Shown: positions 1,663 through 40,227 of the stretch, one piece after another
How positions within the stretch are numbered: position 1 is the stretch's first letter
How the letters are laid out: every line of letters starts with the position of its first letter
Assembly (NCBI GenBank): GCA_026395955.1
Contig: JAPLXR010000008.1
Coordinates: 5,179 to 69,178, forward strand
DNA length: 64,000 nt
Reading direction: 5' to 3'
Source: Candidatus Nomurabacteria bacterium
GTDB taxonomy: Bacteria; Patescibacteriota; Minisyncoccia; Phycocordibacterales; UBA9973
Translations under genes and position numbers: made by a program
The notes under the pieces: model-generated
Databases searched by the model: none
Seen by the model: the letters and a program-made list of their open reading frames with translations, nothing else
What the model was told of the DNA's origin: nothing

Positions 1663-3021
<1,359 letters not shown>

Positions 3022-3029
3022 TTAAAAAT

Positions 3030-3569
3030 ATGGTTGATGAAATACCAAAAATTAATTTTACGAAAAAGGACATTAAACTTTTCCGAGAAAAAAGTGACAA
3101 GTCTTTAGACAAGTCAGTTTTCTCTTTGTCTGAAGAAATAGATAACACTGAATGGCCTTATGGAGAAAAAGTAATGTTTTTATTAGATGAAAGTAAAGAA
3201 CGTATTGGTCAAATTCAATTTAATTATCCAGAAGTAGATGCGAAAGAAAAACTTTTTAAGATAAGAATGATTGCTCTTGATGATAAGTTTAAAAATAAAG
3301 ATTTAGGTATTGTTCTTTATAAAAAACTTATAGATTTAGCAAAGGAAAAAGGTTTTAAAGGAATCAAGAGTGATAATAGTGTTGGTACTGCAGCAAGTGC
3401 GAATTGGAAAAAATTAGCTGATGAAGGGTATGAGTTGATAGTTAATCTTAAAGTTATTGAAAAATATGAAGAGTTTATAAAGACTTATGATGAAGGAAAA
3501 TATTTTATAGGAGGGTTTCAAGTTCCAAAAGAAGAAAGTGTTTTTGAAATAGATTTAAATAAAAAATAA
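3030..3569 (+). CDS. hypothetical protein, possible GNAT-like fold
   Basis: 179-aa AT-rich ORF between atpD and atpC. Weak GNAT-like pattern (KDLGIVLYKKLIDLAKEKGFKGI ... ANWKKLADEGYE). The assignment is tentative. Confidence 0.4.
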   Translation: MVDEIPKINFTKKDIKLFREKSDKSLDKSVFSLSEEIDNTEWPYGEKVMFLLDESKERIGQIQFNYPEVDAKEKLFKIRMIALDDKFKNKDLGIVLYKKLIDLAKEKGFKGIKSDNSVGTAASANWKKLADEGYELIVNLKVIEKYEEFIKTYDEGKYFIGGFQVPKEESVFEIDLNKK

Positions 3570-3570
3570 T

Positions 3571-4014
3571 ATGGCAAAACAATTAAAACTAAAAATAGTC
3601 ACCCCGGAAAAGCTCGTATTAGAAGAGCTTGTTGAGAGCGTGACGTTGCCGACGCTGGAAGGGGAGATCACGATCTTGCCCGAGCACGTGCCGATAATCG
3701 CAGGCCTCAAATCCGGCGATATTGTGGCTCTCGCAAACGGCGAACATATTCCGTATGCAGTCGTTGGGGGTTTTGTGGAAGTAAAAAAGGAGGACGGCAT
3801 GACAACTGTCGCCATCCTTGCCGACTTTGCAGAACACATTGCCGACATCACCGATGAAGCAATCGAGAAAGCAAAAGCCCGCGCAGCAGAGCTCCAGAAA
3901 CTCGCCGAGAACAAAGAAGTCGTAGACTTCGAACACTTTGCAACAGAGCTCGACCGCTCCCTCACTCGCGTCAAAATCGCGGATAAGTGGAAGACTAGAA
4001 AATATAGGAAGTAA
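3571..4014 (+). CDS. atpC: ATP synthase F1 epsilon subunit
   Basis: MAKQLKLKIVTPEK...LPEH...GGF motif typical of epsilon. GC-rich. Confidence 0.9.
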   Translation: MAKQLKLKIVTPEKLVLEELVESVTLPTLEGEITILPEHVPIIAGLKSGDIVALANGEHIPYAVVGGFVEVKKEDGMTTVAILADFAEHIADITDEAIEKAKARAAELQKLAENKEVVDFEHFATELDRSLTRVKIADKWKTRKYRK

Positions 4015-26659: not shown

Positions 26660-28039
26660 ATGAATATCAAATTATATAATACTCTTACGAGAGAAAAAGA
26701 AGATTTTTCACCAATAGATCCAAAAGAGGTTCGTATGTATACTTGCGGGCCTACAGTTTACAATTATGCTCATATAGGTAATCTACGGTCGTATGTCTTT
26801 GCAGATACTCTACGCAGGACTCTAAAATATTTTGATTATAACGTAAAACAAGTTGTAAATATTACAGATATCGGCCACCTAGCTAGTGATGCTGATTCCG
26901 GTGATGATAAAATGACTAAAGGCTTACTTCGTGAAGGTAAAGAATTAAATTTACAAAACATGCGACTACTTGCTGAATTTTATACTGATAGATTCAAAGA
27001 GGATTTACAGAAATTAAATATTCTCACACCGAGCATTCTCGCTTTTGCTTCAGATTATATCAATGAAGATGTTGAACTTATTCAAAGATTAGAAAAAAAT
27101 GGTTTTACTTATAAAATAACTGATGGAATATATTTTGATACGGAAAAATTCCCTGAATATGGAGTACTCCGAAATGGAATTCAAAAAAATGAAGACGGGG
27201 AATCTAGAATCGGTGTAAATTCTGAAAAACATAATCCTGCAGATTTTGCTTTGTGGAAATTCGATCCTAAGATAGGATATCCTTCACCTTGGGGTCAAGG
27301 TTTTCCTGGTTGGCATATCGAATGTTCTGCTATGGGAATAAAATTTTTAGGTGAACAATTCGACATTCATACTGGAGGTATCGACCATATACCAGTGCAT
27401 CATACAAATGAAATTGCTCAGTCTGAGTGTGCTACAGGTAAAAGTCCTTTTGTAAAATATTGGCTTCATCATGAACACCTCGATATGGCTGGAGAGAAGA
27501 TGGCAAAATCAGGTGACAATTTTTTGCGTCTAAAACTCTTAGAAGAAAAAGATATCAATCCACTTGCCTATCGTTTTTGGCTTTTAATGGGCAACTACCG
27601 AACTAAAATGAATTTCAATTGGGAAGCACTAGAAGGTGCTCAAACAGCCTTAAAACGCCTTTTTAGGGCTTATATAGACCTTGGAAATGACCTTGGAACC
27701 TTGAATTCTGACTATCAAAACAAGTTCAAAGAATACATAGCAGATGACCTAGATACTCCAAAAGCTCTAACTTTAATATGGGATCTTTTGAAAGATGAAA
27801 AAATCTCAAATACTGATAAAAAAGCTACATTATTAGATTTTGATAAAGTACTCGGCCTCGGTTTAGAAAAATTAAAAGAAGACAATATTTCAGATGAAGT
27901 AACAGCTATTGCCGAAGAACGCGAACTAGCTCGTAAGAATAAAGATTTCCAAAAATCAGATGAACTCCGTGTTCAAATAAATATACTAGGTTATGAAATA
28001 AAAGACTCTTCTGAAGGTTATAAAATCTTTAAGATTTAA
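26660..28039 (+). CDS. cysS: cysteinyl-tRNA synthetase
   Basis: CGPTVYNYAHIGN (HIGH) and KMAKSGDN (KMSKS). Start chosen at MNIKLYN, just after the corA stop. Confidence 0.9.
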   Translation: MNIKLYNTLTREKEDFSPIDPKEVRMYTCGPTVYNYAHIGNLRSYVFADTLRRTLKYFDYNVKQVVNITDIGHLASDADSGDDKMTKGLLREGKELNLQNMRLLAEFYTDRFKEDLQKLNILTPSILAFASDYINEDVELIQRLEKNGFTYKITDGIYFDTEKFPEYGVLRNGIQKNEDGESRIGVNSEKHNPADFALWKFDPKIGYPSPWGQGFPGWHIECSAMGIKFLGEQFDIHTGGIDHIPVHHTNEIAQSECATGKSPFVKYWLHHEHLDMAGEKMAKSGDNFLRLKLLEEKDINPLAYRFWLLMGNYRTKMNFNWEALEGAQTALKRLFRAYIDLGNDLGTLNSDYQNKFKEYIADDLDTPKALTLIWDLLKDEKISNTDKKATLLDFDKVLGLGLEKLKEDNISDEVTAIAEERELARKNKDFQKSDELRVQINILGYEIKDSSEGYKIFKI

Positions 28040-29721
28040 ATAGCATCTAATTCCATCCAGAAAGTAGAACCTTTGTCTGGGCCATCAGAATCGACACCAA
28101 CTTTACCTTTGTGTCCTTCTTCAATAATTTTCTTTGCGAGATATAGACCGAGTCCTGAACCTCCAGCATTTACTTTTCCACCTTCAGCACGAGAGAATTT
28201 TTGAAATAGCTTTGCTTTTATTTCTGGAGTCATTCCCATGCCAGTATCTTTGATAGATAGACGAATTTTCTTTGTAGCTTCATCTTTAGTTAAAATAACT
28301 TTTATTGTTCCTGTCTTTGTATATTTAATAGAATTATCTATAAAGTTTAAGATAACCTGACGAATTTTTTCCATATCACCTTTTACCATATATGGTGATT
28401 TTTTATCTGTTTCGAAAGTCAATTTCAATCCTTTCTTTTTTGCTGTGACAGATAGGTCTGCAGTTAAATCTTTTGGTGCTTTTTCAAAGTCAAAATCTGC
28501 CATTATATATTGCATTCCACCTTGTTCTATTTTTGTAACGTTCAACAAATCTTCTACTGTTGTAGATAAATGGCGACTTGATTGGTATACACGATCAATA
28601 GCTTCTTTTTGTTTGTCATCCATTTGACCGAAAGATCCATCGAGTAGCATAGATGTGTATCCTATAATAGCCGTCAAAGGACTACGCAGTTGGTGTGAAG
28701 CGAGAGAAAGGAATTCTGTCTTTAATTTATCTAGAGATTGTAATTTTTCATTCGCATTTTCTAATTTTACATTAGATTCTTCAAGTCTCATTTTAGAACT
28801 TTCTAAATCAACTGATAGTTTTTCAATATGAACACGTTGATCTGATTCACGTTTTAAGTTTCTGTATAAAATTATAGAAATAGCTAAAGAAATAATAATT
28901 GTAATTATAGTCAATAATTGGTCGGCTGCACCGTTAACGAAGAATAATTGTCCCCCCATCAATATTACGAGCCCCGCTACAAGATAATGCGTACCTAACA
29001 TTTTAAAGTTAAAAATATCAAGTTCAAATACAGCATAAATAATTGTAACTAAAAATAACGGAAGTATAAAAAGACTATAGAGATTATACTCATATACTCC
29101 TGTAATAGAGGAAATATATTCAGTGATACCAAAAACAGAAAGAAAAGCAAAAATAGAACTTAATACAATAATATCAGCCTTACGTATTTTTTTGTCTTTT
29201 TGTTTGAAAAATGATCTTACTATATAAAAAAGTATTATTAAAAGAATGATACTTTCAGCCACTAATTTATAATTAGAAAGAAAATTATTATTATTGGCTT
29301 CACACGCTGGTTGATTAAACCCTGTTACAGATTGTCCTGTTATTGTTAAATAAAAAGGTGTTATTAATAACAAAGTAAACATTAATTTGATATACCATTT
29401 AGTGTCCCTTTCTTGAACGAAAGTAATTATAAAATATAAACCTAGAACATAGAATATAATTTCAATAAAATCTAAAAATGACCAAACACTATAAATTACA
29501 TGATAATCAGTTGTTGTCCAAGTTATCAAATCACCTATAAGCCATAAACAGAAAGAAACTACAAAGGCTAGAAATATTTTTGAATAAATATTGAATTTTG
29601 CTTTTATAAATATAAAAATAGCTAAAGCTAATGATAAAATTATTGGAATTATATGAGCATAACTAGCTAAAACAACTAAGTCTTTATTTATTGTTGTTAC
29701 AAACAAATAGCAGGAATTCAT
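28036..29721 (-). CDS. sensor histidine kinase with polytopic (~8 TM) membrane sensor domain; no response regulator nearby
   Basis: H-box LSLASHQLRSPLTAI. HATPase_c G-boxes (GGSGLGLYLAKK). Confidence 0.85.
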   Translation of the reverse strand: MNSCYLFVTTINKDLVVLASYAHIIPIILSLALAIFIFIKAKFNIYSKIFLAFVVSFCLWLIGDLITWTTTDYHVIYSVWSFLDFIEIIFYVLGLYFIITFVQERDTKWYIKLMFTLLLITPFYLTITGQSVTGFNQPACEANNNNFLSNYKLVAESIILLIILFYIVRSFFKQKDKKIRKADIIVLSSIFAFLSVFGITEYISSITGVYEYNLYSLFILPLFLVTIIYAVFELDIFNFKMLGTHYLVAGLVILMGGQLFFVNGAADQLLTIITIIISLAISIILYRNLKRESDQRVHIEKLSVDLESSKMRLEESNVKLENANEKLQSLDKLKTEFLSLASHQLRSPLTAIIGYTSMLLDGSFGQMDDKQKEAIDRVYQSSRHLSTTVEDLLNVTKIEQGGMQYIMADFDFEKAPKDLTADLSVTAKKKGLKLTFETDKKSPYMVKGDMEKIRQVILNFIDNSIKYTKTGTIKVILTKDEATKKIRLSIKDTGMGMTPEIKAKLFQKFSRAEGGKVNAGGSGLGLYLAKKIIEEGHKGKVGVDSDGPDKGSTFWMELDAI

Positions 29722-29724
29722 AAA

Positions 29725-30531
29725 TTATTTTTTAGGTATTAATTTTTTAATATGTGAAGGATGACTAATCCAATATTCTTCATTTTCAATGTCTAATAAT
29801 GAAATTGGTACAATTAATGGTTTTACTCCTGTTAAGTTTTCTATTTCATTTATTGATGGTAATACTATGTTTTTAGTAAAATCTCCTTCAGAATCTTTAG
29901 AAGTTAAGAAATTTTCAAATAAAATTCCATGACAAACAAAGAGTAGTAAAAAATTTGTATAATAATGTGAAGCATCATTACCATTCCTGTCGTACCAACC
30001 TGAAATATCATGAAAGATTAAATCTTCAGGTAATTCATAATGTTTGAATAATTTTCTATGAAAATCAATTAGTGGTTCTTCCCATAAAGTAACTATATCT
30101 CTTATTTTTTTTCCATCGTATTTAACGAGATCTATTATATTTATTTTTTCAAACAAATCATTACCATTTTTATTTATTCCGTTATGTACCCTAATTTGAC
30201 AAAGTGAATGTTTAAAATTATTTTTAGAAGTAAATTTATCGTCAGGATATTCAAAAAGTATAGTTTCTAAATTATTTTCTTTTGTTATTTTAATAAAATG
30301 TTGAGTATCAACATTTGGAGTTGCTACTTGCCTAGCAAAAACACCACATTTTTTATTTTTCAATACTTCTGGTATATCACCATTAAGTAATTCCTCAATT
30401 CTGGCTATTAATACTGGATCTTTTTGTCTTTCTTCAAGCAAACGAAGTGCCTCAGAAAGTGGCGTATAAACTATCTGATTAAAGATATTTCTATCTGACA
30501 TTATTGTATTGTAATCACCTATTGAAGTCAT
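29725..30531 (-). CDS. hypothetical cytoplasmic protein (no recognised domain)
   Basis: 268 aa. 3-nt gap to the HK and 2-nt gap to the Cys-rich gene. Confidence 0.5.
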   Translation of the reverse strand: MTSIGDYNTIMSDRNIFNQIVYTPLSEALRLLEERQKDPVLIARIEELLNGDIPEVLKNKKCGVFARQVATPNVDTQHFIKITKENNLETILFEYPDDKFTSKNNFKHSLCQIRVHNGINKNGNDLFEKINIIDLVKYDGKKIRDIVTLWEEPLIDFHRKLFKHYELPEDLIFHDISGWYDRNGNDASHYYTNFLLLFVCHGILFENFLTSKDSEGDFTKNIVLPSINEIENLTGVKPLIVPISLLDIENEEYWISHPSHIKKLIPKK

Positions 30532-30533
30532 AA

Positions 30534-30941
30534 TTAATTTGCTGTATTGCTAATAGGTGTAATGTCACTTATTGGGGTAGTTGTAGGTGTAGGTAAAACA
30601 CAAGTTCCATCCACTATATCTGAATCAGTACACTCTGTTTTTACACAAGCGGTATTATTTGTACAAAAATCTGTACAATCTTCATTTGCACATTTGTCGA
30701 AATCTTTAGCACTCATTGTATAAGTATTGTAATAAGAAAGATTATTTGGAGGACAATTTCCAGCTATAGAACAATCACGATAAAAACATGTTTGTGTTGT
30801 TGAATCGCATTTAGTTTCAACTATAAAGTCATAATTTTTTTTAAAATAAAAAAGATAAAAAGAAACAACAATACTAATAAGACAACTTATAATTAATGTA
30901 TATAGAAACATATTGTGTGTTTTTTTATCTTCTGTTGGCAT
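30534..30941 (-). CDS. membrane-anchored cysteine-rich extracellular miniprotein
   Basis: N-terminal TM anchor. About 15 Cys in ~80 aa (CxxxxxxC patterns). T/P-rich C-terminal tail. Confidence 0.55.
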   Translation of the reverse strand: MPTEDKKTHNMFLYTLIISCLISIVVSFYLFYFKKNYDFIVETKCDSTTQTCFYRDCSIAGNCPPNNLSYYNTYTMSAKDFDKCANEDCTDFCTNNTACVKTECTDSDIVDGTCVLPTPTTTPISDITPISNTAN

Positions 30942-30965: not shown

Positions 30966-31868
30966 TTAAAAATATAAGAAATAACTACCAAAAATTATAA
31001 TACTCATTGCAAATACTTTCTGTAGAATAACTTTCTTACTAATATCTTCTTTTCCAAAAGAAGGAATGAAAACTGTAAAAATAATTCCTAATATAAATAC
31101 AAATATAGGTTGAAAGGCTTCAACCATTAGAACCATGGCTACAACTGGAGCCATCATTAAAGCTTTAGATATAAGTAAGTTGCCAGCAACAGTAGTTAAT
31201 TCAACTAAAGCACTAAAACCACATATAGCTAAAGCATCTTTTTTAAAAATCGTGAAAAATTCTTGTCTATAGGACTTTATAGAAAATAAAACTATAGCTG
31301 AAATAAATATTCCTACAGACTGCCAAAAAACTGAATTATAAAAATTTTCTGATGCACCTACTTTAAATAACACTTGATAAATAGCATAAGAAAGAGATGA
31401 TGTTATCATTAGTAGAAAAATATTTTTCTTAAATTTAAAACTAGAAAAATCGATAGAAATAATAACAGCACCCAATATCACTATTAAACCGCCAAGCATT
31501 TGTTTATTTGTCATTAATTCTCCTAAAAAAATGAATCCAAGTATAAATGCTAAAACAGGAATTAATTGAAAAGTAGGAGTTACTATAGATGTTTCATCTT
31601 TAGAAAGTGCAAATAAATATAGCAATATTGCAACAGTATATAAAATACCAGAAATTATCAATAGCAAAATATGGAGTGGTATAATAGAAAAAATATTTGG
31701 ATCTAGTAAATAAGTCCCTATTACTATAAAAATAGAAAAAAGAGATGAAAATGTTATCAAACCCTTGATACCTACTCCTTCTCCAAAACGAGTTATCAAA
31801 TACTTATCAATATGATTTGAAAAAGCCCAAAGTAATGGAGCCCATATAGCGATTAAAAGCCAAGACAT
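30966..31868 (-). CDS. EamA/DMT-family transporter
   Basis: 10 TM, duplicated EamA-like halves. Confidence 0.8.
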   Translation of the reverse strand: MSWLLIAIWAPLLWAFSNHIDKYLITRFGEGVGIKGLITFSSLFSIFIVIGTYLLDPNIFSIIPLHILLLIISGILYTVAILLYLFALSKDETSIVTPTFQLIPVLAFILGFIFLGELMTNKQMLGGLIVILGAVIISIDFSSFKFKKNIFLLMITSSLSYAIYQVLFKVGASENFYNSVFWQSVGIFISAIVLFSIKSYRQEFFTIFKKDALAICGFSALVELTTVAGNLLISKALMMAPVVAMVLMVEAFQPIFVFILGIIFTVFIPSFGKEDISKKVILQKVFAMSIIIFGSYFLYF

Positions 31869-31889: not shown

Positions 31890-32360
31890 TTATAGAATAA
31901 ACTTAAGGGAGCCTAATCCAACCTCTTTTCTTAATTTATTAACATTTTCTATGTTTAAAATAGGTAGGAATTCTATATTCCCTTTCGAGTCTTTTTTATA
32001 TTGAGTACCATATATTTGTGGTAAATTTTTAAGAACTCTAAATTTATCTATTAAGTAAGCCTTATGAGAAAGATTTATTTCATTTTTTTTAAATTTTTCT
32101 AATAAATTAAGCGCTTTCTGTATAAAATATAAATCACCACAATGAAGCGTAATTAAAATCGCAGCAGTGTAAGCAGATTCTGAAGTCTTTTTTATAGTTG
32201 GAAAACCTATTTCTTCAATTATTTCTTTTAATATGTTTAAATGTTTATTATTTATATCACTTAATTCTGTTTGAGTTATTTTTTGATTATAAAAATCCTT
32301 AATAGCTATTTGGTCAACCTTCAAAATATTTTCAAGAATTTTTGTATAATTTTTATGCAT
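31890..32360 (-). CDS. hypothetical protein
   Basis: 156-aa ORF, no recognised motif. Confidence 0.45.
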   Translation of the reverse strand: MHKNYTKILENILKVDQIAIKDFYNQKITQTELSDINNKHLNILKEIIEEIGFPTIKKTSESAYTAAILITLHCGDLYFIQKALNLLEKFKKNEINLSHKAYLIDKFRVLKNLPQIYGTQYKKDSKGNIEFLPILNIENVNKLRKEVGLGSLKFIL

Positions 32361-35918: not shown

Positions 35919-37910
35919 TTATTCTAAAATTTTTAGCAAGACGTCTTCGGGAACTTCTTTGATTTGAGGTTTAGATTGTTCCCCTCCTTGTTGAGGAGGG
36001 GTGGCTTTAGCTGGGGTGGTGGCTTCTGTTTTCTGCGCAATAAAATCTTTAAATTTATTCATGTCATCACTACTAGCACCTTTATCTTTTGGAAAATTAT
36101 TTGGTAAAGGATTAGTTTGACCTTTTAATGAATTTAATGAAATTGAAGGCTGAGGCTGAACAACTTTTTCTTCTTTCAATGTTTCCGAAAGAGCTTTATT
36201 TAAAATATCTTTCAAAGCATTATTTTGAGACATTGGTCTTTGAATATTTTGTATTGGTTGTTGTTGTGGAGCTGGTTTAAATACTTTTGGTTCTACTGGT
36301 GGAGTTGGAGCTTTATATACTGGTTTAAAAGTTGTTTGTGTAGGTTGTTGTACAGGAGCAGGTGGAGTAATTATTGGTGCTTTTATTTCTTTCTTTTCTT
36401 CTAGAGGTTTCGGTGCGACATATGGTAAAGGCTTGATTGTACCTTCTTTCATTTTAGCAATACAGTCTTTACAATACACAGGTCGTCCTGCTTCTGGTTT
36501 GAATGGAACCAAAGTATCTTTACCACAGATAGAACATTTAACTGGGAATTGTTCTACATCTTTATTTCCCTTTGGAGCTGTCGCGGCTGAAAGATTTAAA
36601 AACATTCCACTCCATTCACTGATTTCTTTTTCAACAATTTCTCTAGGGCGAGCATAAAGTTTTCTAGAGATATCTATAACTTCTTGTTCTGTTTGTAAGT
36701 TTCTCTTTGTAATCATCGGTGGTAATGTGCGTGCAGAAAATGGACGACTTGTTACGCCATCGATCATAAGTTTCAAATAAATTCTATAGTTTGGAAGACT
36801 TACGATATCTTGAGCCATAAATTCTGGTTCGAATTCTTTTTCTAAAAAGTCTGCATCTTCAGCACCAACACGAAATACAATCATAGTTCCGACGTTACCG
36901 AAAACAGCATCACGCACAGCTGAACCATTTGCAGAAACGAGTTGAGCAGTGTATTGGTGTGCAACCGTTAGATTTAAACGGTATTTTCGAGCTTCAGAAA
37001 GAATGTTTGCAAAAGAATCTGTTACGAAGTTTTGGAATTCGTCTACATATAAATAAAAGTCTTTACGTTGATCTTCAGCAATACGTACACGCTCCATCGC
37101 TGCGAGTTGGATTTTTGTAATAAGCATACCTCCGAGCAATGCTGAATTATCTTCACCGATACGTCCCTTCGAAACGTTCACGAGGAAAATTTTCTTCTCG
37201 TTCATAATATCAAAAAGATTGATTGTACTTTTTGATTGACCGACAACATTACGCACAATAGAACTTGAGAGAAATTGTCCGACTTTATTTTGAATAGGTG
37301 TAATAGCTTCATTACGGAATTTGTCTTGCCAAGTATCATATTCATTTACCCAAAAACCTTTTACGATAGGATCTTTGATATTATCAACAATTGTTTTTCT
37401 ATATGGTTTATCTACGAGCATACGAGTCACACCGAGGAGTGTCGTGCCAGGAGTTTCAAGCAATGCCAAAATAGCATTGTTCAAAATATATTCCATACGA
37501 GCAGACCAAACATTCGCCCAGATCTTCGTAAAGATTCCCATGAGTCCTGAAGCTACGAGATGTTTGTATTGAGGATCGACGAGTTCGAGAACATTTAACC
37601 CAATATGATAATCAGTATCAGCTGGATTGAAATATACAACGTCTTGCATTCTATGTGGAGGAATACTAGAAACAATATCTTCTACGAGTTCACCGTGAGG
37701 ATCGACAACACAAACACCTTCACCATTGATGATGTTTTGCATAACCATATTTGTCATAAAAGCAGATTTACCTGTTCCTGATTTTCCTAGAATATATACG
37801 TGCTGTCTGCGATCTTTTCTTTTAATACCAAAAAGCTGATTTTTATTTCTAAATGTTGTTTCACCTAGATATGTGATATCTTTATTTTCTGGGAATTGTA
37901 TTGGATCCAT
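35919..37910 (-). CDS. FtsK/HerA/TrwB(VirD4)-superfamily P-loop ATPase with C-terminal CxxC...CxxC zinc ribbon and Pro/Gln-rich tail
   Basis: Walker A GKSGTGKSAF. VVDPHGE (cf. TrwB/HerA DPxGE). Walker B FYLYVDEFQNF. HQ motif. Zinc ribbon VKCSICGKDTLVPFKPEAGRPVYCKDCIAK. No TM. Likely start at MDPIQ (37910); the track start is 37940. Confidence 0.75.
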   Translation of the reverse strand: MDPIQFPENKDITYLGETTFRNKNQLFGIKRKDRRQHVYILGKSGTGKSAFMTNMVMQNIINGEGVCVVDPHGELVEDIVSSIPPHRMQDVVYFNPADTDYHIGLNVLELVDPQYKHLVASGLMGIFTKIWANVWSARMEYILNNAILALLETPGTTLLGVTRMLVDKPYRKTIVDNIKDPIVKGFWVNEYDTWQDKFRNEAITPIQNKVGQFLSSSIVRNVVGQSKSTINLFDIMNEKKIFLVNVSKGRIGEDNSALLGGMLITKIQLAAMERVRIAEDQRKDFYLYVDEFQNFVTDSFANILSEARKYRLNLTVAHQYTAQLVSANGSAVRDAVFGNVGTMIVFRVGAEDADFLEKEFEPEFMAQDIVSLPNYRIYLKLMIDGVTSRPFSARTLPPMITKRNLQTEQEVIDISRKLYARPREIVEKEISEWSGMFLNLSAATAPKGNKDVEQFPVKCSICGKDTLVPFKPEAGRPVYCKDCIAKMKEGTIKPLPYVAPKPLEEKKEIKAPIITPPAPVQQPTQTTFKPVYKAPTPPVEPKVFKPAPQQQPIQNIQRPMSQNNALKDILNKALSETLKEEKVVQPQPSISLNSLKGQTNPLPNNFPKDKGASSDDMNKFKDFIAQKTEATTPAKATPPQQGGEQSKPQIKEVPEDVLLKILE
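35981..36001. repeat. GC-rich palindrome (7-bp arms) inside the ATPase gene tail
   Basis: cccctcc-ttgttga-ggagggg. Encodes PPQQGG on the minus strand. Confidence 0.65.
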
Positions 37911-38053
37911 ATATATGATTATATCAGTTATTAAAAACAAAAAAAGCTTTTTAAAGCTTTTTTTGTTAGAGAAATTGAAAGTATTTTTTCGAGCTGGTCT
38001 GGCTGACCCCCTTCCAAGGACCCGAGAAAAAATTCTTTCAGTTTCTCTTCTTG

Positions 38054-39949
38054 CTATGCTTTTGGTTCTTCACCCTCTGGCTTTACCTCCTCACCTTTGA
38101 CTTCGGTTGCTTGTTCTTCGGGTGTACCTCCGGATGGAGCCTCTGCACCTGCTTTACTCATAGCTTCACCGATCTTAGACATTTCTGTAGAAAGTTCTTC
38201 TAGAGCTTTTTGAATAGCTGGTAAGTCTGTACCATCTTTTAATCCGCGAAGTGCTGTGATTTTTGCATTCACTCCATCTTTCACTTCTGCTGGAATTTTT
38301 GCTTCATTATCTTTCAAAGCTTTTTCTGCAGAGTAAATAGTCATTTCACAAGAATTTTTTATTTCTGCTAATTCTTTTTTCTGTTTATCTTCTTCAGCAT
38401 GAAGTTCAGCATCAGCTTGCATCTTCTTTATATCTTCATCTTTCAATCCTGAACTTGCTTCGATTTTAATTGATTGAGTTTTACCTGAAGCTTTATCTTT
38501 TGCAGTGACGTTAAGAATACCATTCGCATCTACATCGAAAGAAACTTCGACTTGTGGCATACCGCGTGGTGCTGGTGGAATACCATCGAGAATAAATCTT
38601 CCGAGTGATTTGTTATCACCAGCCATTGGACGTTCACCTTGAACGATATGGATTTCTACACTTGTTTGATTGTCGGCTGCTGTAGAAAATGTCTGTGATT
38701 TAGAGGATGGAATAGTTGTATTTCTCTCAACTAATTTTGTAGCCACGCCTCCAAGTGTTTCGATACCGAGTGAAAGTGGAATAACATCGAGAAGTAAAAC
38801 GTCGCGCACATCACCTTGTAATACTCCAGCTTGCACTGCAGCACCGAGGGCGACGACTTCGTCTGGATTGATAGAAAGGTTTGGAGTTTTTCCAAAAACT
38901 TTTTTCACTTCTTCCACGATCTTTGGCATTCTTGTTTGTCCTCCGACCATTATTATTTCATTCATTTCTTCCATTTTGAAACCAGAAGCAGTCATAGCTC
39001 GCTTTGTTATCTCGATAGAACGAGTGATATATTCATCGGCAATTGATTCGAGTTGCGCACGAGTCATTTTGAGTAATAAGTGTTGTGGGCCAGCTTCTGT
39101 AGAAGTAATGAAAGGGATGTTGATTTCTGTTTCAATAGCTGTAGAAAGCTCGATTTTAGCCTTTTCAGCAGCTTCATCGAGGCGTTGTAATGCGAGCTTG
39201 TCATTGCGGACATCTACACCTGAAGTCTTCTTGTATTCTTCTGCGATCCAAGCAATAATCTTGTGATCAATATCACGGCCTCCGAGGTGACTGTCGCCAT
39301 CTGTTGATTTTACTTCGATAACATCGTCACCAATTTCAAGAACTGACACGTCGAATGTACCTCCTCCGAAGTCATACACAACGATCTTTTCATTTTTCTT
39401 TTTATTGAAACCATAAGCGAGAGCTGCGGCTGTAGGCTCGTTTATAATTCTCTTTACATCGAGTCCTGCGATCATACCTGCATCCTTTGTAGCTTTTCTT
39501 TGTGCATCATTGAAATATGCTGGAACTGTAATAACAGCCTCAGTAATTTTTTCTCCAATCTTTGCTTCCACATCAGCCTTAATTTTTCCTAAAATCATCG
39601 CAGAGATTTCTTCTGGGCGCATCCATTTGTCGCCGATCATTACTTCTACTCCTCCGTCTTTTCCTTTTTGTAATTTAAATGAAGCATTCTTCAAATCCTT
39701 TTGCACTTCTGGATCTTCAAAATTGTGACCCATAAAACGCTTGATACCGTAGACGGTATTTTCCGGATTCGTCACTGCCTGTCTTTTTGCAAGTAAACCT
39801 ACGAGACGATCTCCATTTTTTGCAACAGAAACGATACTCGGAGTCGTTCGAGCTCCTTCGATATTTTCTATAATCTTCGGCTGTCCTCCTTCGATGATTG
39901 CTACTGCACTATTTGTTGTACCCAAGTCTATTCCAATTATTTTTGACAT
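38054..39949 (-). CDS. dnaK: molecular chaperone DnaK (Hsp70)
   Basis: [21 protein letters not shown] and full-length Hsp70 architecture. Confidence 0.95.
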
Positions 39950-39987
39950 ATATTTTTTATTTGATTAATTTTTAATGGTTAATAATT

Positions 39988-40227
39988 TTATTTGATATCT
40001 TCTTTTCTATTTTTATTATAATTGTTCCAACCTATTGAATAAAATATTATTAAAAAAGGTAAAAACAACAATAAGAAACTTTGGAAATATTGATGGCAAT
40101 TTTTACCAAAATCTATTTTATAACAATAATAAGAACCTGCACTTTTTTCAATCAAAGTAAACAGGGTGATCATAAACAACCACAATACTGCCAGCTGACT
40201 TTTTGTAATTTTATAAATATTTTTCAT
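39988..40227 (-). CDS. small membrane protein
   Basis: 79 aa, 2 TM. Confidence 0.4.
   Translation of the reverse strand: MKNIYKITKSQLAVLWLFMITLFTLIEKSAGSYYCYKIDFGKNCHQYFQSFLLLFLPFLIIFYSIGWNNYNKNRKEDIK

Follow-up and report, generated by a model that had tools for sequence, protein, structure and literature searches.

A Conserved Gene Module of Patescibacteria as a Candidate Multi-Protein Sensor Built around a Polytopic Histidine Kinase

Histidine Kinases with Accessory Proteins

Some bacterial histidine kinases that have hardly any sensing domain, or none, are signaled through membrane or cytoplasmic partners or a transporter encoded with them, as in WalK-YycH/YycI, LiaS-LiaF, BceS-BceAB, PhoR-PhoU-Pst, DcuS-DctA, and UhpB-UhpC. 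The genes discussed here, which resemble these systems in concept, lie in a 64-kb window (the whole stretch of DNA that was analyzed) from a metagenome-assembled genome (MAG) of Candidatus Nomurabacteria, a member of the Patescibacteria, or Candidate Phyla Radiation (CPR). They encode a polytopic sensor histidine kinase of 561 aa, a soluble protein of 268 aa (referred to as mid), a membrane-anchored cysteine-rich protein of 135 aa, and a transporter of the EamA family. The best-supported reading of this set is a two-component sensor that depends on accessory proteins, in which EamA, the cysteine-rich protein, and mid would be the partners of the kinase; the module is probably a device of several proteins for sensing that has not been described before, and not just an ordinary kinase on its own. 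The partners here are not homologous to those of the systems named above (no Pfam or NCBIfam match), the response regulator is not co-encoded, and the partners comprise an acidic, putatively disulfide-rich mini-domain together with a soluble protein whose fold has no known match.

Three further systems invite comparison. The HisKA_7TM kinases also have a polytopic N-terminal membrane sensor placed directly before the HisKA/HATPase_c core, with no extracytoplasmic domain; they differ in that the kinase described here has about nine predicted transmembrane (TM) helices instead of seven and two conserved cysteines predicted to face outward, as well as two co-inherited accessory genes, of which no mention was found in two papers that name HisKA_7TM. 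PilS is a 6-TM kinase that senses the membrane-anchored pilin, and by analogy the present kinase, which is also polytopic, may detect a small single-pass protein within the bilayer; the present locus has no prepilin motif and no PilR-type regulator, and similarity of the kinase to PilS was not found, as no family match covers the sensor region. Finally, in the NspS-MbaA pair of Vibrio cholerae a membrane transducer is informed of polyamines by an accessory protein outside the cytoplasm, which would be a parallel if the polyamine hypothesis discussed below is right. However, NspS is folded like a periplasmic substrate-binding protein and MbaA belongs to the GGDEF-EAL proteins, and the present locus has neither; the polyamine link of the module comes only from gene neighborhood. 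A description of this module was not found in the literature on Patescibacterial (CPR) histidine kinases, cysteine-rich proteins, polyamines, EamA, or HisKA_7TM.

Organization and Conservation of the Module

The three core genes follow one another on the minus strand (which also carries EamA and the genes at 31890-32360 and 35919-37940 described below) and correspond to the open reading frames (ORFs) at 30534-30941 (cysteine-rich protein, 135 aa), 29725-30531 (mid, 268 aa), and 28036-29721 (kinase, 561 aa). A preliminary description of this DNA had presented them as a tight module with gaps of 2 and 3 nt, and the junctions read in the DNA, TAA-tt-ATG and TAA-ttt-ATG, agree with it, as does the reported 4-nt overlap with the convergent cysS gene (the kinase ORF ends at 28036, cysS at 28039). 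The 268-aa and 135-aa proteins proved identical to NTW62_03175 and NTW62_03180 in the homolog search. All three genes are real and not chance ORFs, because their homologs number 358 for mid, 83 plus those derived from the loci for the cysteine-rich protein, and more than 100 for the kinase. A fourth gene at 30966-31868 encodes a 10-TM transporter that belongs to the EamA/DMT family (PF00892, E 2.2e-13, with a score of 51 bits where 28.2 is the cutoff; about 10 hydrophobic segments). It ends 24 nt before the start of the cysteine-rich gene, and the sole terminator-like site on the minus strand between EamA and that gene is weak and lies inside EamA itself.

The conservation of this arrangement was followed by scanning a single genome for each GTDB species, which gave 80 loci whose neighboring genes were called with hidden Markov models; labels such as L007 or L080 denote loci of relatives, and a distant subfamily of mid was taken from metagenomes. 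The order cysteine-rich gene, mid, kinase is exact in 42 of the 64 testable genome loci, with EamA directly upstream in 31 of those 42, and a kinase carrying the same sensor domain lies on the same strand in 60 of the 64. Of 78 genome loci, 51 contain EamA. A wider non-redundant count found the kinase downstream of mid in 67 of 73 cases (58 within 1 kb) and the cysteine-rich gene in 61 of 70, while the contigs of four relatives show the order small gene, mid, kinase, mostly preceded by the EamA gene. Even in the distant metagenome subfamily the kinase is found downstream in 30 of 40 loci, and the trio is kept down to 35-42% identity of mid, including in MAGs labeled Peribacteria, Vogelbacteria, and 'Bdellovibrionales'. 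The module is distributed in the Patescibacteria, mostly in Paceibacteria/Nomurabacteria.

Co-occurrence of the three genes in relatives had been proposed as the test on which the module should stand or fall, and the trio indeed holds across Patescibacteria, also where the flanking genes differ. The cysS gene, by comparison, adjoins the module in about 26 loci only, always together with a corA-rplU-recR-dnaB backbone, and was rejected as a member. Because this adjacency is so limited and the flanks vary, the module is not background synteny, and the 4-nt overlap of the kinase with cysS is local gene packing that lies outside the system. These data support the three genes as a functional unit, which has four genes rather than three, EamA usually being the fourth.

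The divergence of the encoded proteins was compared by pairwise distances over 28 non-redundant four-gene loci. The distances of the kinase sensor domain correlate with those of the cysteine-rich protein at 0.84 and with those of mid at 0.79, and the two accessory proteins correlate with each other at 0.69. Correlations with EamA are about 0.5 for the sensor, the cysteine-rich protein (0.53), and mid, and those with the kinase core are only 0.2-0.3 (0.28 for the cysteine-rich protein and 0.22 for mid). The transmitter cores fall into two classes, one, to which the kinase of the window belongs, recognized by HisKA and marked by a coiled-coil insert of 21 residues, and the other a divergent DHp without a HisKA match (L007, L011, and L058); the regions compared were kinase residues ~300-561 (window 28036-28821) versus L007:2500-4134, L011:6805-8448, and L058:6792-8435. 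The core distance is 0.66 between the classes and 0.40 within them, and the sensor domain, the cysteine-rich protein, and mid show no class structure. The two classes have therefore spread independently of the sensor and the accessory genes, which calls for at least one domain swap, and they possibly lead to different response regulators. It follows from the pattern of correlations that the evolutionary unit is the sensor with its two accessory proteins, the transmitter being exchanged, and a physical coupling of the accessory proteins to the sensor would fit these distances.

Several variants of the module were also observed. A permuted, paralogous form, with the order mid, EamA, cysteine-rich gene, (mid2), kinase, occurs in about 10 loci, and both forms coexist in one MAG (L011 and L064, JAPLXU01). 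Two paralogous modules, or a tandem of two mid genes, are found in some genomes (L011/L064; also L037, L051, L080, L082, and L068-L070), a duplication that is notable given the genome size. In L007 the cysteine-rich and EamA genes upstream of mid are replaced by the ORFs 104-1078 and 1174-1641, which were judged by eye to be radical-SAM/SPASM-like (an SGGEPL motif and a C-terminal cysteine cluster) and a small methyltransferase-like protein dependent on S-adenosylmethionine (SAM; LDLGAGDF), respectively. The distant metagenome clade has a conserved polytopic membrane protein of ~180-215 aa, with no Pfam match, between the cysteine-rich gene and mid (L094:5397-5927, L096:5311-5949, L162:5243-5881, L099:5236-5856, L138:5239-5781, L143:5286-5909, L110:3940-4548, and L108:1695-2258). 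The alignment of this protein contains the invariant residues G, D, G, W, D, G, S, S, and W, and it takes the place that in Paceibacteria is held upstream by EamA.

The Kinase and the Cysteine-Rich Protein

The core of the kinase is ordinary. It consists of a HisKA (DHp) domain at residues 334-401 (28519-28722; PF00512, E 1.7e-17) and a HATPase_c domain at residues 448-559 (28045-28380; PF02518, E 2.8e-25), and the NCBIfam matches are likewise limited to this C-terminal part. His343, the phospho-acceptor of HisKA-class kinases, is invariant in an alignment of 14 orthologs with 29-80% identity, and so are the residues of the N, G1, and G2 boxes (N459, N463, D492-x-G494-x-G496, and G523-x-G525). 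The ~290 hydrophobic residues that precede HisKA have no Pfam match. This sensor domain (residues 1-290, 28852-29721) had been described as having about eight TM helices and no periplasmic domain, which is essentially right: hydropathy and loop charges predict about nine helices, with the N-terminus outside and the C-terminus inside, and a longest outside loop of 27 aa. The predicted inside loops contain 2-4 Lys/Arg residues and the outside ones almost none, following the positive-inside rule. HisKA_7TM (PF16927) matches 3 of the 14 orthologs weakly (best E 5e-6, 26.9 bits against a gathering cutoff of 28.6), and the kinase of the window does not match it at E ≤ 0.1, so that its sensor is best seen as a probable distant relative of the family.

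Two cysteines of the sensor are invariant in the 14 diverse orthologs, and both are on the predicted outer face: Cys4, in the 'NTC' motif of the N-terminal tail (codon 29710-29712), and Cys140, in the motif GFNxxxCEA of the TM4-TM5 loop (codon 29302-29304). Among 102 unique kinases, Cys140 occurs in 101 and Cys4 in 88, the remaining 14 being unaligned at the N-terminus, and no other cysteine column of the sensor domain exceeds 50%.

The cysteine-rich protein begins with a short tail predicted to be cytoplasmic, which is followed by one TM helix, the acidic ectodomain with ten cysteines, and a disordered Thr/Pro tail. The preliminary description had already proposed an anchor, an ectodomain, and a tail, and the AlphaFold2 (AF2) model, built from 74 sequences with a mean predicted local distance difference test (pLDDT) of 84.9, has the same layout: residues 7-34 form a helix and residues 38-116 a compact alpha/beta domain with pLDDT ~90, and the tail LPTPTTTPISDITPISNTAN follows. 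In the window, the anchor (~residues 12-34 by hydropathy) is encoded at 30840-30908, the ectodomain core (residues 36-116) at 30594-30836, and the tail (residues 117-135) at 30537-30593; residues 122-129 have pLDDT below 50, and the C-terminal tail is conserved neither in length nor in sequence. The best-conserved stretch is the TM/juxtamembrane segment SFYFFYFKKDYDFIVET, which takes in the TM helix and the KKxYDFIVET after it and in which F28, Y29, F31, Y32, K35, F39, and E42 are nearly invariant. An orientation with the N-terminus inside and the ectodomain outside is suggested by the long charged N-terminal extensions of some homologs, the low-complexity C-terminal tail, and the cysteine pattern.

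The number of cysteines, estimated earlier at about 15 in the ectodomain, is in fact 11 in the whole protein. Ten of them (C45, 52, 57, 63, 84, 89, 93, 99, 104, and 114) belong to the ectodomain, and the 11th, C20, is a non-conserved residue of the TM helix. Conservation of their spacing across species was the other test that had been set, and the spacing is essentially invariant: among 148 unique homologs (83 from databases, the rest ORFs added from the loci), each of the ten columns is occupied in 139-148. The few joint losses affect C93/C99 in three sequences, C84/C89 in two, and C63/C93 in two, which hints at a C93-C99 pairing. The use of such losses to derive the disulfide connectivity was rejected: their number is too small, some of them contradict one another, and the alignment of the divergent sequences may be wrong. 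The ectodomain core has a mean net charge of -10.9 over ~82 residues. The protein has no match in Pfam, NCBIfam, or PADLOC; its model finds no match in the PDB with Foldseek (best E 0.7), and its profile reaches at most chance-level matches to PDB sequences (E ≥ 0.05). Its identification as a type IV pilin or pseudopilin was rejected, since the N-terminus MPTEDKKTHNMFLYTLIISC lacks the G-F-T-L-x-E class III signal motif and does not match PF07963.

The earlier suggestion that the cysteine-rich protein is a co-sensor for a kinase devoid of its own extracellular domain is plausible in view of the conserved TM/juxtamembrane segment, the shared divergence with the sensor (r = 0.84), and the outward cysteine pair of the kinase; this evidence is indirect, and the physical interaction that the suggestion implies is putative.

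The same cysteines could be taken to mean that the module is an extracytoplasmic thiol/disulfide sensor, in which disulfides would be exchanged between the outward cysteines of the kinase and the 10-Cys protein, kinase activity would thereby reflect redox conditions outside the cell, and EamA would export a thiol such as cysteine. C4 and C140 are indeed the only conserved cysteines of the kinase sensor domain, their partner has ten near-invariant ones, and the adjacent transporter is of a family whose E. coli namesake, EamA, is a cysteine/O-acetylserine exporter; a DsbA-like gene is also present 2 kb upstream in L081. However, evenly spaced, near-invariant cysteines in a compact and confidently predicted fold look structural rather than redox-active, and there is no CxxC motif. 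Moreover, the substrates of the EamA family are very many, the adjacency of cysS is background synteny, and the DsbA-like gene occurs in one locus. Such a sensor would also leave unexplained the associations of mid, described below, with S-adenosylmethionine decarboxylase (AdoMetDC), SpeE, ornithine decarboxylase (ODC), GNAT, and SET enzymes, and it is considered unlikely. As for the DsbA-like gene, it encodes a thioredoxin-fold protein (L081:1152-1796; PF13462, E 5.6e-31) upstream of an AdoMetDC-EamA-Cys-mid-kinase-REC operon (REC, receiver domain), and a link to the module was rejected on account of its presence near the module in this locus only.

A different role for the cysteine-rich protein would be that of a secreted pheromone precursor in an Agr/Com-like system, matured or modified by mid, exported by EamA, and recognized by the kinase as its receptor. 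AgrC and ComD are polytopic kinases without an extracellular domain and in this resemble the present one, which also has a small gene directly upstream and a transporter in the same operon. Nevertheless, with ~23 residues the N-terminal TM helix is long, and no other part of the protein is as well conserved, which argues for a signal anchor and not a cleaved leader. Pheromones diverge fast, whereas the ectodomain keeps 50-70% identity across many species. The AgrD precursor has ~45 aa compared with the 135 aa found here, mid is cytoplasmic whereas the cysteine domain would fold outside, and a Pfam scan of the module genes and 12 neighboring ORFs found neither a peptidase of the AgrB type nor an ABC/peptidase exporter nor a LytTR regulator, so that the locus does not qualify as an Agr cassette. 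This explanation is regarded as highly improbable.

The 268-aa Protein and Its Association with Amine Metabolism

The mid protein has 358 close homologs of ~266-280 aa with 55-86% identity, all annotated as 'hypothetical', and searching 1.8 billion representatives with a profile extended the family to at least 851 clusters (50% identity, E ≤ 1e-3). Hydropathy gives no TM segment, and the AF2 model is an alpha/beta fold (pLDDT 90.6, predicted TM-score 0.88). Members at 30-42% identity share the invariant residues Y22, R35, N104, K107, H158, Y191, G235, and P238, in addition to the near-invariant R67, P72, E94, D98, W179, E206, and E215, and this pattern of polar and aromatic residues suggests a ligand or active site.

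None of the resources searched assigns mid to a described family. It has no match in Pfam, NCBIfam, or PADLOC, and comparisons of single sequences and profiles with PDB sequences gave chance-level matches only (E ≥ 0.05). The best Foldseek hits of the model have E 0.015 (TM-score 0.28) in the PDB and 0.029 in BFVD, with TM-scores below 0.32; relatives of the nucleotide-binding HUP/Rossmann-like type (TyrRS, PanC, ATP sulfurylase, cytidylyltransferases, and PP-loop ATPases) were rejected because these hits are a weak, non-significant scatter and not homology. Pfam, NCBIfam, PDB sequences, and Foldseek likewise revealed no similarity to enzymes or binders of polyamines (SpeE, SpeG, PotD, deoxyhypusine synthase, and agmatinase). 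Thus, mid and the cysteine-rich protein are two families without known relatives.

The preliminary description had cast mid as a non-canonical output partner of the kinase. In this role, as phospho-acceptor or effector, mid would replace the absent response regulator, an idea that agrees with the lack of a receiver in the 64-kb window, with the tight adjacency of mid and kinase in most loci, and with their 3-nt gap, which suggests translational coupling; the fusions to SET or GNAT described below could be read as effector output. The relatives speak otherwise. REC or REC-REC genes directly follow the kinase in loci that keep mid, mid occurs without the kinase directly after AdoMetDC, and the fusions join it to enzymes. 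In addition, mid tracks the sensor (r = 0.79) rather than the transmitter core (r = 0.22) and is unchanged across the swapped core classes, which argues against a phosphotransfer partner. Nor does mid resemble a receiver, an Hpt domain, or any known output fold: it does not match PF00072, phmmer searches with CheY, PhoB, and Spo0F were negative, and the AF2 model has no significant match in the PDB. An output function of mid is therefore very unlikely, and the receiver neighbors, the kinase-free occurrences, and the fusions make an input-side or enzymatic role a better fit.

What this role may be is indicated by the genes around mid in relatives. In at least 14 Paceibacteria loci the module is adjoined by genes for Orn/Arg decarboxylase, deoxyhypusine/homospermidine-synthase-like, and arginase-family proteins. 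The operon AdoMetDC, EamA, cysteine-rich gene, mid, kinase occurs in L081, L085, and L089, followed in the first two by a REC-REC gene, and in L080 a fusion of AdoMetDC and spermidine synthase is directly upstream of mid-mid-kinase. Ten further metagenome loci have AdoMetDC and/or SpeE next to mid (L092, L093, L111, L115, L123, L124, L126, L134, L141, and L150). In L088, L111, and L150, AdoMetDC is directly followed by mid or GNAT-mid and no kinase is present; in L111 a stand-alone SET gene comes next. Finally, mid is fused to SET in P0245, P0283, P0347, L099, and L138, within otherwise normal modules of small gene, mid, and kinase, and to GNAT in P0277, P0292, and L127. Roughly five independent arrangements thus tie mid to enzymes that make or modify amines, and from these associations mid is read here as a putative input-side partner, linked to amines or polyamines, and not as an output.

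Receivers and Type IV Pili

No response regulator had been reported anywhere in the window, and the searches agree: phmmer with CheY, PhoB, and Spo0F against the six-frame ORFs of at least 60 aa gave a best E of 0.2, and a Patescibacterial receiver query found none in the window either. The term 'orphan' applied to the kinase is therefore true within the window, where it describes the placement of the genes and not a missing class of partner. Indeed, receiver genes follow the kinase in L007, L076, L081, L085, L094, L136, L138, and other loci, and they are of the REC-only or REC-REC type without a DNA-binding domain.

The receiver of L007 is of particular relevance because the gene order of this locus is mid, kinase, REC, pilT, pilC, pilin, pilD. 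It is a stand-alone receiver of ~133 aa from a highly conserved Patescibacterial family with more than 1600 homologs at ~70% identity, and in three other genomes a receiver of this type lies between pilB and pilT with no kinase nearby (L169:5001-5402, L171:5001-5405, and L172:5001-5408). The pilus cluster of Paceibacteria was observed to have the order pilM-N-O-x-pilB-REC-pilT-pilC-pilins-pilD, with no kinase inside. In having a stand-alone receiver within a type IV pilus cluster, adjacent to the kinase in L007, the system resembles the CheY-like pilus regulators PilG/PilH, and the orphan kinase and the orphan receiver of the pilus cluster are candidate partners.

One proposal is accordingly that the module controls type IV pili, the kinase phosphorylating the CheY-like receiver of pilB-pilT and so allowing pili to extend and retract in response to a cue from outside or from the host. 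Besides the gene order of L007, the high conservation of the receiver family, and the three kinase-free clusters, it can draw on L059, L065, L087, and L094, where pilus genes are at most 6 kb away from the module, and it is compatible with the accessory-dependent sensor as the output arm of the latter. On the other hand, direct adjacency is found in one locus, whose kinase has the other transmitter class, the one not recognized by HisKA, and the window itself has no pilus genes. The receivers that adjoin the kinase in distant clades are REC-REC or less like the pilus receiver, and the chance co-location of a cluster of ~12 pilus genes in small genomes is not negligible. Control of pili is thus a tentative and rather unlikely proposal.

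A more far-reaching one joins the pilus and the polyamine evidence. In this version, mid would be a new family, with a fold absent from the PDB, that binds or modifies amines or polyamines and that forms, with the cysteine-rich domain and the kinase, the main environmental or host sensor of Paceibacteria. The signal would be a polyamine, which the cell makes and exports through EamA or which comes from the host; it would reach the CheY-like receiver of the pilus cluster and govern attachment or motility of these ultra-small, episymbiotic bacteria. As a sub-variant, the invariant Lys107 of mid might itself receive a modification (hypusine-like, methyl, or acetyl) from the DHS-like, SET, and GNAT enzymes that neighbor mid or are fused to it. 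In its entirety this scheme, sub-variant included, is improbable.

Proposed Mechanism

The mechanism proposed for the accessory-dependent sensor assigns a place to each component. The kinase, having no extracellular domain of its own, would read its signal via the membrane domain while in a putative complex with the cysteine-rich protein. The TM/juxtamembrane helix of the cysteine-rich protein would pack on the helices of the kinase, so that its acidic ectodomain, presumably stabilized by disulfides, could serve as an outward ligand or redox surface near the C4/C140 pair. On the cytoplasmic input side, mid would bind or modify an amine, most likely a polyamine or related metabolite, as putative ligand or substrate, and couple its own state to the kinase. 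EamA would carry the relevant small molecule across the membrane, the direction of transport being likewise conjectural, and the output would pass via an ordinary stand-alone receiver encoded elsewhere in the genome, for which the pilus-cluster protein is a candidate.

Several points weigh against this mechanism. Protein-protein contact, the disulfides, and the ligand are all putative, and the outside location of the ectodomain derives from sequence features. The correlations of distances between the module proteins are confounded by shared phylogeny and rates and are weak by nature. The polyamine link rests on gene neighborhoods and fusions in relatives: the window contains no polyamine gene, since phmmer searches with polyamine queries matched only the EamA ORF, and Pfam finds only housekeeping families in the module and the 12 neighboring ORFs. 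Many of the Paceibacteria associations may share one ancestral arrangement, so that independent events number about five and not dozens. Furthermore, SET domains normally methylate protein lysines and not polyamines, the CPR homologs of AdoMetDC may have substrates other than the expected ones, and the common factor could be SAM chemistry or the modification of protein lysines instead of free polyamines. Nevertheless, the thiol/disulfide, mid-output, and Agr-like alternatives each explain fewer observations, and a conserved Patescibacterial multi-protein sensor made of EamA, the cysteine-rich protein, mid, and the ~9-TM kinase, working in the manner proposed, is held with moderate confidence.

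Other Features of the Window

Upstream of the module, a protein of the DUF6624 family (E 1.4e-8) is encoded at 31890-32360, between PBP2 and EamA; it was rejected as a module member, given that a homolog is found in just one related locus (L067). Farther upstream, at 35919-37940, lies the gene of a 673-aa ATPase that resembles the VirD4/TraG type IV coupling proteins and contains a treble-clef zinc finger (PF10412, PF02534, and PF23477); this gene adjoins dnaJ and dnaK and is unusual for a housekeeping stretch of a CPR genome. The G+C content, with a background of ~0.30, peaks at 0.44 (window 2001-4000) and at 0.40 (38001-40000), the latter stretch coinciding with dnaK (38054-39949).

Significance for Patescibacterial Signaling

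The Patescibacteria have tiny genomes and few signaling systems, and how they sense their hosts and surroundings is mostly unknown. The module is present in many Paceibacteria species and strongly conserved there, as seen in the 55-86% identity of mid and the ten fixed cysteines of its membrane-anchored partner. If the module is indeed a polyamine-linked sensor that feeds a CheY-like regulator, two new domains would be added to the repertoire of bacterial signal input, and a family of at least 851 clusters, annotated so far as 'hypothetical', would gain its first functional context. Such a sensor would also offer a concrete, testable entry into the way in which these organisms perceive their environment.

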